From contig JBBAAF010000002.1 of the NCBI GenBank assembly GCA_041658425.1, forward strand, positions 57,156-121,155: a stretch of DNA of 64,000 nucleotides. The letters are read 5' to 3'. Positions within the stretch are counted from its first letter, which is position 1, and every line of letters begins with the position of its first letter. A model generated the notes under the pieces. It worked only from the letters and a program-made list of their open reading frames with translations. It was not told where the DNA came from and searched no databases. Shown here in pieces: positions 32,085-35,890 of the stretch. The translations under genes were made by a program, and so were the position numbers. This DNA is from Bacteroidales bacterium (GTDB lineage Bacteria > Bacteroidota > Bacteroidia > Bacteroidales > UBA12481).

Positions 32085-32879
32085 ATGGAAAAACTGAAAA
32101 ACAGTTTGGAATCCCTGTCTCTGGAAGGCAAAGTCGCCATTATAACCGGAGGTGCGTCTGGAATTGGCCTGGGAACGGCCAAAAAGCTGGCCAGATTCGG
32201 AGCAGAAATTTCCATTCTGGATATTAATGATAAACAGGGTAAGGATGCAGAAAAAGAGATTATCAGTGCCGGTGGCAAAGCACATTATATCCATTGTGAT
32301 GTAAGAATGGCTGAAGAATGTAAGAAGGCGATTGACGAAACATTTAAAATCTATGGCAGGATCGACATCCTGTTTAATAATGCAGGCATTGCTATTCGGA
32401 AAAACGCAGTTGACCTGGAATCAGAAGAATGGGACCTGGCGCTTAACGTGTCCCTGAAAGGGCAATACCTGGTTACCAAGTATGCGGTACCTTATATGAT
32501 TAAAGCTGGTGGGGGAAGCATTATTAACACGGGTTCAGGCTGGTCGCTGAAAGGTGGGGAAAATGCCGTATCCTATTGTGCCATGAAAGGGGGAACGCTC
32601 AACATGACACGTGCCATGGCCATAGATTTCGGGAAATACAATATACGCGTCAACACGGTGTGCCCGGGTGATATTGACACCCCCATGCTAAAGAGTGAAT
32701 GCGAACAATTGGGAGGAGTTTATGATGATGATTACATTAAAAGCTGCATAACGGGTCGTCCTATCCAAAGAATCGGAACCGTAGATGATGTCGCTAACGT
32801 TGTGCTCTTTTTTGCCAGCAATATGTCAACATGGATTACTGGCACCCATCTCGTGGTTGATGGGGGAGGTATTGCTTAA
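32085..32879 (+). CDS. Short-chain dehydrogenase/reductase (classical SDR)
   Basis: 264-aa ORF with TGGASGIGLG, NNAG and the YCAMK (YxxxK) catalytic motif. Confidence 0.85.
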   Translation: MEKLKNSLESLSLEGKVAIITGGASGIGLGTAKKLARFGAEISILDINDKQGKDAEKEIISAGGKAHYIHCDVRMAEECKKAIDETFKIYGRIDILFNNAGIAIRKNAVDLESEEWDLALNVSLKGQYLVTKYAVPYMIKAGGGSIINTGSGWSLKGGENAVSYCAMKGGTLNMTRAMAIDFGKYNIRVNTVCPGDIDTPMLKSECEQLGGVYDDDYIKSCITGRPIQRIGTVDDVANVVLFFASNMSTWITGTHLVVDGGGIA

Positions 32880-32906
32880 ATATCAATCAATTAATAAAAA
32901 TTTTAT

Positions 32907-34301
32907 ATGACACCAAAACCCAACTTTGTTCATCCTTACATCCCAAATTCCGCGCCTGCCAATAAGGAGAAAATGATGCAGGAATTGGGGATTAAGGATA
33001 TCAGTGAACTTTATGATGATATTCCGGATAGGCTCAGGTTCAAAGGGAAAATGAATATTCCGCCGGCTATTGCCTCTGAGCTGGAATTACGGAAACACAT
33101 GACCGGGATTCTGAATAAGAACACCTCCTGTGAAGATAACCTCAGTTTTCTCGGATCAGGGTGTGCCCAGCATTATGTGCCTGCCATTTGTGACGAGATT
33201 ACCGGCAGGGCTGAATTTCTTACTGCCTATGCCGGTGAGCCATACGAGGATCACGGACGCTTTCAAACCCTTTTTGAATATGAAAGCCTGATGGCCGAAC
33301 TCCTCGACGTTGATGTCGTAAATGTACCAACCTACGACTGGGGGCAGGCTGCCTGCAGTTCAATTCGCATGGCTGGCCGGATAACCGGGAGGAAAGAGAT
33401 GCTGGTTTCCGGCACCATTTCGCCTGACAGACTCATGGTGATAAAAAACTATTGTGAACCCGTCATGAAGATTGTTGTACTTGAATTCTCCGCCGAAACC
33501 GGTCAGATGAATATCGAGGATCTCCTGAAAAAAACCGGGAGCAACACTGCCGGTGTTTACTACGAGAATCCGTCTTATCTGGGTTTCCTGGAAGAGGAGG
33601 GATCGGAAATAGCAAATATTGTACACCAGTCGGGAGGTATCGTGATCGTTGGGGTTGACCCTATCTCACTCGGTGTCATTGCTCCTCCAAGCCAATATGG
33701 TGCCGATATCACCTGCGGAGATATCCAGGGACTGGGTAACCATATGTACCTCGGTGGATCGCTCGGAGGATTTATCGGAACAAGGGATGAAGAAAAATAT
33801 GTGATGGAATATGCCTGGCGCCTGTTTGGTATTGCCAAAACTTCGGTTGAAGGGGAATGGGGTTTCGGGGATGTTGCTTACAACCGAACCTCCTTTGGGG
33901 TCAGGGAAAAAGGAAAGGAATTTGTTGGAACTGCTGCAGCACTCTATGGAATTTCAGCTGCTGTCTACCTTTCGCTGATGGGCCCTGAAGGAATGAAGGA
34001 ACTCGGCCGGCTGATTCTCCAGAATGGGCTCTATGCACAGAAAAAGATAGCTTCATTACCCGGAGTCAGGTTGAGGTTCAGCTCTACCAATTTCAAGGAA
34101 TTTGTGGTTGACTTTTCTTCTGCCGGAAAATCTGTGGCTCAGATTAATCAAGCATTACTTGCCAAGGGTGTTTTTGGCGGAAAGGATCTGTCTGGTGAAT
34201 TTCCTTCTTTGAAGAACTGTGCACTCTATTGTGTAACCGAGATGCATTCAAAGCCGGATATTGATACTCTGGTATCTGCCGTAAGTGAAATCCTGAAGTA
34301 A
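32907..34301 (+). CDS. Divergent glycine dehydrogenase (decarboxylating) subunit 1 (GcvPA)-like protein
   Basis: 464-aa ORF, collinear with GcvPA (FLGSG..HY.PA, GADI..GD.Q.LG, AAVYLSLMGPEGMKEL). It lacks the canonical TPYQPE.SQG and EQHIRREKATSNICT blocks as I remember them. Confidence 0.75.
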   Translation: MTPKPNFVHPYIPNSAPANKEKMMQELGIKDISELYDDIPDRLRFKGKMNIPPAIASELELRKHMTGILNKNTSCEDNLSFLGSGCAQHYVPAICDEITGRAEFLTAYAGEPYEDHGRFQTLFEYESLMAELLDVDVVNVPTYDWGQAACSSIRMAGRITGRKEMLVSGTISPDRLMVIKNYCEPVMKIVVLEFSAETGQMNIEDLLKKTGSNTAGVYYENPSYLGFLEEEGSEIANIVHQSGGIVIVGVDPISLGVIAPPSQYGADITCGDIQGLGNHMYLGGSLGGFIGTRDEEKYVMEYAWRLFGIAKTSVEGEWGFGDVAYNRTSFGVREKGKEFVGTAAALYGISAAVYLSLMGPEGMKELGRLILQNGLYAQKKIASLPGVRLRFSSTNFKEFVVDFSSAGKSVAQINQALLAKGVFGGKDLSGEFPSLKNCALYCVTEMHSKPDIDTLVSAVSEILK

Positions 34302-34318
34302 TCATAAAAAAACAAACC

Positions 34319-35890
34319 ATGAATATTCAAAAAGGAAGCCGGTTAAGAAATTTCCATCAGGCTAAATGGGATGAGGAAGTGATATTTCAATTGCATACAC
34401 CCGGTGAAAGGGGGATCATAGTATCTGAAGCTGATCCGGAGATTCAGCAGGAAGTTGGTGACGGTTTATCATCGTTACCCTCGCATTTAATCCGCAAGGA
34501 AGGTCCGGCTTTACCGGAGGTTGGACAAATGAGGGTTCTTAAGCACTTCCTCAGGCTGTCACAGCACACCCTTGGTGCGGATTTGAATATCGACATAGGC
34601 CAGGGTACCTGCACAGTCAAATACAATCCCAAGATAAACGAGGTGTTTGTACGAAGCCCCAAAGCATCAAAGCTGCATCCATACCAGGATCAGGGAACCA
34701 TTCAGGGAGCCCTTCAAATAATGCATGAAATGGACTTGTACTTCAGGGAGATTTCGGGGATGGCCCGGTTTACTTTCCAGCCAAGTTCAGGATCGCATGC
34801 CATTCTTGTAATGGCATCTATCATGCATAAATACCATAGCCTAAGGGGAGAAAGCCATCGGGACGAGCTGATAACCACAATATTTTCACATCCTTCCGAT
34901 GCCGCTGCGGCAGCAGTTAAGGGGTACAAGGTAATCACCATATTTCCCGACAAAAATGGATTTCCGGATATGGATGCGTTGAAAAAAGCTGTTTCCTCAA
35001 GAACTGCCGGTCTTTTCATAACCAATCCCGAGGATACAGGCATTTTCAATCCATACATTGATGAATTTACCCGAATCATTCATGAAGCCGGAGGGTTATG
35101 CGGGTATGACCAGGCGAATGCGAATGGGATATTGGGAGTCACCAGGGCGAAAGAAGCCGGATTCGACATGTGCTTTTTCAATCTGCATAAAACCTTTGCC
35201 TCGCCGCACGGATGCGGGGGACCTGCCGGCGGTGCGTTGGGAGTTACAAAGGGCCTGGAAAGCTACCTGCCTGTCCCTCTAATTGATTTTAAAGATGGAA
35301 GATATCAACTAAACTGGGATCTGGAGCATACCATTGGAAAAACCCGTTCGTTTTATGGTCCATTTCCCGTAATTCTTAGATCCTATGCATGGATCAGAAG
35401 CCTGGGAGAAGAAGGATTGAAGGAAGTAGCCAGAATTGCCGTTCTGAACAACAATTATATTCTAAAAAATCTGACTGAGATCGAGGGTGTTGAATCTCCA
35501 TTTCCGGGTGGAAAGCACAGAATTGAACAGGTCCGTTATACCTGGGAGAAATTCCACCATCAAACCGGGGTCGATATTCACAATGTGATTTTCAGGATGT
35601 GCGATTTCGGATTCCATTTATGGACCAGTCATCATCCGTATTTAGTACCCGAACCGTGTACTATTGAACCTACCGAATCCTATTCGAAAGCTGAACTGGA
35701 CGAGTATCTCGATGGATTGCGCCATATTGCTGAAGAAGCCAGGACAGACCCTGAAACGGTAAAAAGTGCTCCCCACCGGAGCGTTGTTCACACCATTGAT
35801 GAAAGCTGGTTCGATGATCCGCAGAAATGGGCGATCACGTGGAGGGCTTTCTTAAAAAAGCACGGTGAGGAATTCAACAAAAAGGCATGA
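34319..35890 (+). CDS. Divergent glycine dehydrogenase subunit 2 (GcvPB)-like PLP protein
   Basis: 523-aa ORF that retains the PLP-lysine block FNLHKTFASPHGCGGPAGG (Lys291, nt 35189-35191) and the general GcvPB layout. Confidence 0.75.
   Translation: MNIQKGSRLRNFHQAKWDEEVIFQLHTPGERGIIVSEADPEIQQEVGDGLSSLPSHLIRKEGPALPEVGQMRVLKHFLRLSQHTLGADLNIDIGQGTCTVKYNPKINEVFVRSPKASKLHPYQDQGTIQGALQIMHEMDLYFREISGMARFTFQPSSGSHAILVMASIMHKYHSLRGESHRDELITTIFSHPSDAAAAAVKGYKVITIFPDKNGFPDMDALKKAVSSRTAGLFITNPEDTGIFNPYIDEFTRIIHEAGGLCGYDQANANGILGVTRAKEAGFDMCFFNLHKTFASPHGCGGPAGGALGVTKGLESYLPVPLIDFKDGRYQLNWDLEHTIGKTRSFYGPFPVILRSYAWIRSLGEEGLKEVARIAVLNNNYILKNLTEIEGVESPFPGGKHRIEQVRYTWEKFHHQTGVDIHNVIFRMCDFGFHLWTSHHPYLVPEPCTIEPTESYSKAELDEYLDGLRHIAEEARTDPETVKSAPHRSVVHTIDESWFDDPQKWAITWRAFLKKHGEEFNKKA

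Follow-up and report, generated by a model that had tools for sequence, protein, structure and literature searches.

The DNA considered here is a window of 64,000 nucleotides (the whole stretch that was analysed, positions 57,156 to 121,155 of contig JBBAAF010000002.1, assembly GCA_041658425.1) from a Bacteroidales bacterium of the GTDB lineage UBA12481, and its subject is a module of three genes encoding a short-chain dehydrogenase/reductase (SDR) and a two-subunit enzyme that resembles the glycine cleavage system's pyridoxal 5'-phosphate (PLP)-dependent glycine decarboxylase, or P-protein. Coordinates are those of the window, and features lie on its + strand unless stated otherwise. The SDR is the first enzyme of the module (32085-32879; open reading frame (ORF) call, Pfam adh_short_C2 at 1.7e-63) and is followed, immediately downstream and after a spacer of 27 nt, by a GcvPA-like alpha subunit of a non-canonical P-protein-like PLP enzyme (PA; 32907-34301; Pfam GDC-P), which is separated by 17 nt from the GcvPB-like, PLP-binding beta subunit (PB; 34319-35890; Pfam GcvP2_C and Aminotran_5). 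The beta subunit keeps the PLP-lysine block NLHKTF, which aligns with the NLHKTF block of Thermus, and the lysine itself, Lys291 (codon AAA, 35189-35191), lies within NLHKTFASPHGCGGP. These ORFs, the position of Lys291 and the spacer between PA and PB had been described in an earlier note on this DNA, and all of them are confirmed from the sequence.

Judged by its cofactor and catalytic motifs (TGGASGIG at residue 21, NNAG at residue 98 and YCAMK at residue 164), the SDR is a classical short-chain dehydrogenase/reductase, and because an acidic residue follows beta-2 (the Asp in ILDIND, residues 44-49) it is probably NAD-dependent. It scores above the cut-off of the NCBIfam 'glucose 1-dehydrogenase' subfamily (229 vs 215 bits), and comparison with PDB and NCBIfam returned generic similarity (4NI5, BacC and the same glucose 1-dehydrogenase subfamily) without a specific function. 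The SDR, PA and PB carry no signal peptide, whereas one is present in every glycosidase of the surrounding array. Neither gcvT nor lpd was found by Pfam among all window ORFs of at least 200 aa and several smaller ones, and tblastn of the window, for which an authentic GcvT and an E. coli GcvH sequence served as queries, gave nothing at E<0.6, which agrees with the claim of the earlier note that the window lacks gcvT, gcvH and lpd. A regular expression for the GcvH lipoyl motif, a crude test, had zero matches across 1.4 Mb.

The alpha subunit of the window lacks both of the motifs that characterize canonical P-proteins. The active-site motif YTPYQPE(I/V)SQG is replaced by the signature AYAG-EPYEDHGRFQ, which includes a one-residue deletion (33225-33266, residues 107-120), and the loop motif REQHIRR(E/D)KATSNICT is replaced by NRTSFGVREKGKEFVGT (33882-33932, residues 326-342). 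In end-to-end alignments with the GcvPA/GcvPB complex of Thermus thermophilus (1WYT), which score 193 bits for the alpha subunit (30% identity to GcvPA) and 295 bits for the beta subunit (37% identity), YTPYQPEVSQG of 1WYT_A corresponds to YAG-EPYEDHGRF and REQYIRRAKAKSNITT to the second signature. The replacement of both motifs had been claimed from the letters alone, with the reservation that a proper alignment might restore them, and they are still replaced in the alignments. The beta subunit carries subfamily-specific blocks around its conserved lysine as well, namely SHPSDAA (34886-34906; SHPSxAA across the subfamily alignment, in place of AHGSNPA), YDQANANG (35105-35128, in place of YDGANLNA) and PHGCGGPA (35204-35227, in place of PHGGGGPG).

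The likely meaning of these replacements can be read from human GLDC, for which residue roles are taken second-hand from two papers on nonketotic hyperglycinaemia. Both tyrosines of YTPYQPE, Y161 and Y164, are active-site residues (PMC7259800), Q366 belongs to the lipoamide channel, I372, R373 and K376 form an H-protein interface predicted by docking, and I381 and C382 lie beside the active site in a loop that moves upon PLP binding (PMC4767401; PMC7259800). Since the human positions map there, the two altered alpha blocks correspond to the substrate pocket and to the entry of the lipoyl arm. Within the subfamily of the window protein, the positions of R373 and K376 are variable, and those of S379-N380 have become a Glu followed by an aromatic residue.

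The subfamily is large and widespread, and the pair is thus not an orphan in the sense of being rare, as it had been called. For 79 homologues collected from genome loci, identity to the window protein amounts to 58-85%; they are found in Bacteroidota, Gemmatimonadota, Aminicenantes, KSB1, Anaerolineae, Clostridia, Tissierellia, Paenibacillus and Neobacillus, as well as in Heimdall-, Hod-, Brock- and Bathyarchaeia archaea. For the subfamily as a whole, from Bacteroidota to Asgard and Bathyarchaeia archaea, the range is 58-89%. Among these 79 members the segments FlTAYaG-ePYeDHGRFQaLFEY and VaY.RTSFa.RE.GKE.VGT..ALwG are near-invariant, which argues that the replaced motifs are a conserved signature and not the outcome of decay.

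An exhaustive search of 1.84 billion representatives returned 5,701 relatives, and 94 full-length representatives were compared further. The canonical alpha motifs are essentially unchanged in 77 of them, while in the remaining 17, among them the window protein, neither motif is present; these have the one-residue deletion and share RT-S(Y/F)..R(E/D)..(G/A)K(E/D)x.GT and (S/E)D(H/L)G(K/R). In a phylogeny against housekeeping P-proteins, as the earlier note had proposed, a simple neighbour-joining tree of the 94 representatives renders the 17 non-canonical and the 77 canonical proteins reciprocally monophyletic and places the window protein in the non-canonical clade, in which its subfamily (EPYEDHGRF) is one of several. 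Sequence identity alone was rejected as a separator of the two groups, as the representative search yields a gradient from 64 to 30%, but the motifs and the tree do separate them. The same search also contained a 2,750-aa multidomain protein (P0174) with a PA-like domain at residues 1532-1979. No paper describing the non-canonical clade was found in the literature searched.

Profile scores give a different impression, as they resemble those of ordinary members, and the divergence is visible only in the motifs, the phylogeny and the gene context. The window PA scores 465 bits against an NCBIfam equivalog cut-off of 364 and PB 549 against 441 (NF001696 and NF003346); non-canonical proteins range over 397-505 bits for PA and 549-576 bits for PB, and canonical proteins reach 691 and 808 bits, which leaves the window pair in a lower score band. 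All scored non-canonical proteins exceed the GcvPA/GcvPB cut-offs, and NCBI names them GcvPA/GcvPB; thus the two kinds are conflated in automatic annotation and the non-canonical proteins are systematically misnamed. Taken at face value, these scores, together with the retained PLP-lysine block and overall fold family, would fit an ordinary two-subunit P-protein that was horizontally acquired by Bacteroidota and has the SDR as an unrelated neighbour; its GcvH and GcvT would be encoded elsewhere, and as the window spans only 64 kb, gcvT and gcvH could be distal. Such an enzyme would, however, be expected to keep the active-site and lipoyl-channel motifs of the 77 canonical representatives, which are here replaced by other conserved motifs, and the genomic context speaks against it still further.

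For the context analysis, all ORFs of 80 subfamily loci and the window (n=81) were clustered and compared with 80 canonical, Bacillus-type GcvPA loci of Bacillaceae, with neighbours counted in flanks of at most 10 kb, which are often shorter on contigs of metagenome-assembled genomes (MAGs). GcvT (PF01571) adjoins the pair in none of the 81 subfamily loci and in all 80 canonical ones, and no association with GcvT, GcvH or lipoylation genes appears in the subfamily loci or the window; LipM-like genes accompany the canonical pair in 51 of its 80 loci. Conversely, an SDR is a neighbour in 67/81 subfamily loci and in 1/80 canonical loci. An NAD-kinase-fold protein of about 374 aa (38/81 vs 0/80), a GH2 LacZ-type or GH42 beta-galactosidase (26/81 vs 0/80; GH, glycoside hydrolase family), a GH63/YgjK-like or GH31 enzyme (10/81 vs 0/80), an APC or NhaC-type transporter (14/81 vs 0/80) and a sigma-54 activator (23/81 vs 1/80) follow the same pattern.

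The SDR is therefore a genuine functional partner, as the earlier note had supposed, being adjacent in most loci across phyla; its conservation beside the pair in bacterial phyla and archaea would not be expected of a chance neighbour. Furthermore, Neobacillus drentensis NBRC 102427, N. kokaensis LOB 377 and Bacillus sp. JJ1773 each own a canonical gcvT-gcvPA-gcvPB operon besides the SDR-linked pair, and the two PA copies within each genome are 34-36% identical. A separate canonical set in the same genome, which had been suggested as a test of paralogy, is thus found in these three genomes, which are those of Bacillaceae and not the genome of the window. Against this background, an ordinary, horizontally acquired P-protein becomes very improbable, and we put the probability that the window pair is not a housekeeping glycine-cleavage P-protein at roughly 0.85.

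The best reading of these sequences is that PA/PB is a neofunctionalized paralogue of the two-subunit P-protein, which would act independently of H-protein and without GcvT, and that SDR-PA-PB would form a self-contained, cytoplasmic module. Neofunctionalization had already been proposed for the pair, and the proposal holds in that the PLP chemistry is kept while the substrate pocket and the surface for lipoyl arm and H-protein differ, in forms that are in turn conserved. Compared with the Thermus complex, the pair has the same fold family, the same alpha/beta split and the same PLP lysine in NLHKTF on the beta subunit; it differs from it in the replaced alpha motifs, the altered beta blocks and the oxidoreductase neighbours that stand in place of gcvT. 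A known fold and cofactor chemistry have thus been combined with new partners and a rebuilt active-site entrance, probably serving a new substrate and reaction.

The gene order around the module varies with lineage. In Paenibacillus, a two-component system, a sugar ABC transporter and a GH2 enzyme precede SDR, PA and PB, and in Neobacillus, GH63, GH2 and a divergent sigma-54 activator are followed by SDR, PA, PB, an ABC transporter and another GH2. In Clostridium, a sigma-54 activator stands before an operon of a LysP-like permease, SDR, PA, PB and the NAD-kinase (NADK)-like protein, and in relatives NhaC-type transporters, an ArgE/DapE deacylase or an Orn/Lys/Arg-fold decarboxylase lie close by. 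A 6.4-Mb Bacteroidota genome has the order SusC, SusD, beta-helix protein, GH2, SDR, PA, PB and YgjK-like GH63, and Aminicenantales have GH141-like, GH39, GH10 and GH63-like enzymes, then two SDRs, PA and PB, and then GH29 and an M24 Xaa-Pro aminopeptidase. Archaea and Gemmatimonadota mostly have one or more SDRs, PA, PB and the NADK-like protein alone. A beta-galactosidase and a YgjK/GH63 or GH31 alpha-glucosidase-like enzyme flank the module in both Bacteroidota and Firmicutes, and a GH63-like enzyme does so in Aminicenantes.

Other subclades of the non-canonical clade show different sets: SDR, a zinc-dependent alcohol dehydrogenase (Zn-ADH), PA, PB, M20, FAH, M24 and an aminotransferase in one; two SDRs, PA, PB, a 164-aa ORF, an NADK-like protein and a saccharopine-dehydrogenase-like protein in another; and a DAO-type flavoenzyme with PA and PB in a third. 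The common rule of the clade is an oxidoreductase followed by PA-PB. The NAD-kinase-fold protein (PF01513 and PF20143, with a weak DAGK_cat match) lies directly 3' of PB in the 38 subfamily loci that have it (e.g. L004:7473-8624) and recurs in another non-canonical subclade (L167:11692-12885), and it has no match in PDB and no NCBIfam model.

In the window itself, the module sits in a Bacteroidota polysaccharide utilization locus (PUL), in which susC/susD share one strand with a regulator and with glycoside hydrolases. The array opens with an ECF sigma factor (25091-25654; Pfam Sigma70_r2/r4_2/ECF) and a FecR-type anti-sigma factor (25674-26765; FecR and FecR_C), followed by a SusC-like TonB-dependent transporter with an STN signalling domain (26939-30349; STN, CarbopepD_reg_2, Plug and TonB_dep_Rec) and a SusD-like lipoprotein (30369-31889; SusD-like_3 and SusD_RagB). 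Directly 3' of susD lies a hairpin with a perfect 15-bp stem and a T-run (31899-31932; consensus match), the strongest terminator-like site of the region, which may be a terminator or an attenuator between susCD and the module, so that expression levels may differ between susCD and the enzymes downstream; the hairpin makes co-transcription of the module with susCD uncertain.

Beyond PB follow a GH42 beta-galactosidase with a signal peptide, whose ATG according to the gene call lies 7 nt past PB (35898-38057; Glyco_hydro_42 at 3.3e-109), a secreted GH31 alpha-glycosidase of the alpha-glucosidase/alpha-xylosidase-like type (38206-40596; Pfam GH31, with weak NCBIfam matches to alpha-xylosidase and alpha-glucosidase) and, further on, an APC-family amino-acid/amine permease (46636-47967; AA_permease_2) whose closest NCBIfam families are an amino acid transporter and a basic amino acid/polyamine antiporter. 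Downstream of the permease the array continues with GH3, GH43/GH29, sulfatases, GH29 and a beta-helix protein.

Synteny in related Bacteroidota delimits the part of this array that travels with the module. SusC-SusD-SDR-PA-PB is conserved in four related loci (L002, L004, L005 and L007), a GH42 orthologue lies 3' of PB in three (L002, L003 and L006), and permease orthologues of 79-81% identity are found directly 3' of PB in L001 and within the L002 locus; a GH31 orthologue occurs near the module in L042. The link to an amino-acid permease, which had been noticed in the window, is therefore real, and the Clostridium operons have a permease of another, LysP-like kind. The fucosidase, sulfatase and GH3 part is not conserved among the related loci, and the whole fucosidase/sulfatase array was rejected as part of the module, since synteny with related Bacteroidota extends to SusC/D, GH42 and the APC permease only. 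The PUL setting described by the earlier note stands in that the module sits behind susC/susD, but it is not peculiar to PULs, as about half of the loci, in archaea, Gemmatimonadota, Aminicenantes and many Clostridia, have no glycosidase nearby. SDR-PA-PB is thus a portable catabolic module that was recruited behind susC/susD and is not specific to PULs.

Several further features of the window deserve mention. An ADP-ribosylglycohydrolase-family protein with a twin-arginine-like signal RRSFLKSGALSL lies amid the secreted glycosidases (40687-41769). Enzymes of the ADP-ribosylglycohydrolase fold cleave sugar-to-amino-acid linkages, and by analogy this protein might hydrolyse glycosyl-amino acids; the related loci that were examined do not conserve it. 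A tandem pair of secreted paralogues, each about 770 aa long (41825-44140 and 44297-46600), matches the GH42 catalytic domain only marginally, at about 26 bits, and may represent a clan GH-A glycosidase family that has yet to be described. A radical SAM/SPASM protein (23728-24993), encoded upstream of the ECF sigma factor, is probably the anaerobic sulfatase-maturing enzyme for three sulfatases at 53214-62280.

A second PUL is divergently oriented (78-20139, - strand) and contains SusC (16939-20139), SusD (15425-16891), LamG-domain proteins and the hydrolases GH127 beta-L-arabinofuranosidase (78-2039), GH2 (2112-4466) and GH10 (6675-7784). In other organisms GH127 acts on hydroxyproline-linked arabinosides, and its presence here may bear on whether the organism targets hydroxyproline-rich glycoproteins. 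A sulfur-related cluster lies amid these PUL genes and consists of a Sulf_transp membrane protein (9991-10593), a rhodanese (10602-11213) and a double-rhodanese (11214-12254, - strand). Between the two PULs, the sequence of a LacI-family regulator is spread over a pair of overlapping ORFs (20423-20836 and 20823-21368), the first with the helix-turn-helix and the start of Peripla_BP_1 and the second with the remaining ligand-binding domain, which looks like a frameshift in a pseudogene or an assembly error.

The carbohydrate setting could be taken to mean that the module handles an amino sugar, either because the SDR oxidizes C1 to a 2-amino-2-deoxy-aldonate that PA/PB then decarboxylates or deaminates, or because PA/PB transaminates an amino sugar and the SDR reduces the keto sugar. 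Amino-sugar metabolism commonly pairs an SDR with a PLP enzyme, the module is surrounded in roughly one third of loci by glycosidases, by SusC/D or sugar ABC transporters and by ROK kinases, and the SDR passes the glucose 1-dehydrogenase cut-off. This likeness to glucose dehydrogenases is generic, however, the best PDB matches being of unknown function or BacC, and no deacetylase, amino-sugar-specific transporter or kinase recurs near the module. Moreover, the transporters of the tightest operons are of amino-acid types (APC, LysP-like and NhaC/ArcD-like), and the archaeal and Clostridial loci are without any sugar genes. An amino sugar is accordingly an improbable substrate, and the amino-sugar acid proposed in the earlier note finds no specific support, as transporters and neighbours point more to a basic hydroxy-amino acid.

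The best reading with respect to the substrate is a hydroxylated amino compound, either free or released from alpha-Glc/beta-Gal glycosides (Glc, glucose; Gal, galactose). From the partners and neighbours of the module we infer the order of the reactions, the bond broken and the substrate as follows. In the organism of the window, a glycoconjugate would be taken up by SusC/SusD, and its sugars would be removed in the periplasm by secreted enzymes, among them the GH42 beta-galactosidase and the GH31 alpha-glycosidase. What is left, an aglycone with a hydroxyl and a primary amine, would then be imported by the APC permease, the probable inner-membrane importer of the module substrate. In the cytoplasm, the NAD-dependent SDR would oxidize the hydroxyl to a ketone beside the amine, giving an alpha-amino-ketone as threonine dehydrogenase does, after which the amine would be bound on the PLP of PA/PB and the adjacent C-C or C-COO- bond broken. 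The resulting carbanion would be protonated, possibly by the clade-specific Asp-His of D-H-G-[KR], instead of attacking lipoamide. Cleavage beside the amine-bearing carbon followed by protonation is the simplest scheme, because the ancestral enzyme stabilizes an aminomethyl carbanion and the surface for the lipoyl arm has been rebuilt. We hold this sequence of dehydrogenation and PLP-dependent cleavage at slightly below even odds.

The closest precedent for such a sequence is the pair of threonine dehydrogenase and 2-amino-3-ketobutyrate ligase (TDH/KBL), in which a dehydrogenase makes a ketone beside an amine, a fold-type-I PLP enzyme then breaks the adjacent C-C bond, and the two genes are tightly linked. 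KBL, however, is a homodimer of the alpha-oxoamine synthase family and uses CoA, whereas the window enzyme is a two-subunit derivative of the P-protein. The earlier note had drawn this analogy, which can be extended to the substrate: the SDR would be an L-threonine or L-serine 3-dehydrogenase, and PA/PB would act on the 2-amino-3-keto acid, either like KBL to yield glycine and an acyl unit or by decarboxylation to an aminoketone. Descent from a glycine-binding enzyme, for which a glycine-PLP carbanion is a natural intermediate, would suit such a route, as would the amino-acid transporters of the operons, the frequency of an oxidoreductase with PA-PB in the non-canonical clade and the Zn-ADH of one subclade, whose family includes threonine dehydrogenase. 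Yet it gives no reason for the recurring link to beta-galactosidase and alpha-glucosidase, the permease inside the Clostridium operons scores far higher as LysP-like (642 bits with PRK10836, the E. coli LysP model) than as ThrP (300 bits), and since several common threonine routes exist, an extra conserved module with an NADK-fold protein would be left unexplained. A threonine or serine route is thus rather unlikely.

Returning to a hydroxylated amino compound, the neighbours give hints of a basic hydroxy-amino acid that carries a glycan on its hydroxyl. The basic amino acid is hinted at by the LysP-like permease, the ArgE/DapE-type deacylase, the Orn/Lys/Arg-fold decarboxylase, the saccharopine-dehydrogenase-like neighbour and the Xaa-Pro aminopeptidases, and the glycan by the beta-galactosidase that is repeatedly paired with an alpha-glucosidase-like enzyme. 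The candidate that agrees best with these properties is 5-hydroxylysine (Hyl), free or derived from Glc-alpha1,2-Gal-beta-O-hydroxylysine, which the SDR would convert to 5-oxolysine (H2N-CH2-CO-R); cleavage of its C5-C6 bond would give glutamate and a C1 amine, with no further enzymes required. As the specific substrate, 5-hydroxylysine is nonetheless doubtful, and the literature searched held nothing relevant on bacterial 5-hydroxylysine gene clusters or on YgjK with Glc-Gal-Hyl. Hydroxyproline (Hyp), which arabinogalactan proteins contain as beta-Gal-Hyp, would agree with the Xaa-Pro peptidases and with GH127, GH43 and GH39, and was ranked below hydroxylysine because its secondary amine needs ring opening before the usual PLP aldimine can form and because the permease is LysP-like and not ProY-like.

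Mammalian catabolism of 5-hydroxylysine employs the hydroxylysine kinase HYKK and the PLP phospho-lyase PHYKPL. In comparison, both systems would place a PLP enzyme at the amine next to a modified hydroxyl of a hydroxy-amino acid, and a kinase-fold protein, the NADK-like one, accompanies the module in 38 of the 81 loci. The protein families are unrelated, however, the regular partner of the module is an SDR and not a kinase, and the NADK-like gene is absent from the window.

Several observations weigh against the function and substrate proposed here. Both subunits pass the equivalog cut-offs for GcvPA and GcvPB, and PA/PB could have retained glycine decarboxylase activity. The NADK-fold protein has no explained role in the scheme. 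About half of the loci have neither a glycosidase nor an amino-acid transporter within 10 kb, so that the substrate is deduced from a subset, and with the strong hairpin between susD and the module, it is conserved synteny, not co-expression, that ties the module to the PUL. Hydroxylysine in particular is a weak candidate for the PUL of the window, as the carriers are often MAGs from peat, lakes and sediments, and the nearby fucosidases, sulfatases, GH10, GH39 and GH127 do not fit collagen; one could just as well conceive of plant hydroxyproline-rich glycoproteins or of another aglycone.

A bolder form of the proposal extends to the whole clade, which would then be a hitherto unrecognized family of lipoate- and H-protein-independent 'aminomethyl-lyases' that, paired with a dehydrogenase, cleave vicinal amino-alcohols (H2N-CH2-CH(OH)-R) by way of an aminomethyl ketone, with the subfamily of the window providing the missing microbial route for 5-hydroxylysine and Glc-Gal-Hyl from collagen-type glycoproteins. 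We regard this as a long shot, but if it were true, many 'glycine cleavage' calls in MAG reconstructions would be wrong, including those for Bathyarchaeia, Asgard archaea and Aminicenantes.

To conclude, the non-canonical clade has been sampled from at least nine bacterial and several archaeal lineages, in which its members are automatically named GcvPA/GcvPB. Genomes thereby seem to own two P-proteins, and MAGs seem to possess 'glycine cleavage', though the true function of the enzyme is probably another one; the groups are split cleanly by two short motifs of the alpha subunit, which could serve to mend the annotation. If the proposed function is correct, the P-protein scaffold, which is normally bound to a lipoyl carrier, would have been given a second use as a PLP enzyme that stands alone but for its partner dehydrogenase. 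In addition, the recurrent beta-galactosidase and alpha-glucosidase neighbours, which lie behind SusC/D in Bacteroidota and beside sugar ABC systems in Bacillales, suggest a dedicated route for the non-sugar amino part of a glycoconjugate, the handling of which is rarely accounted for in models of PULs.

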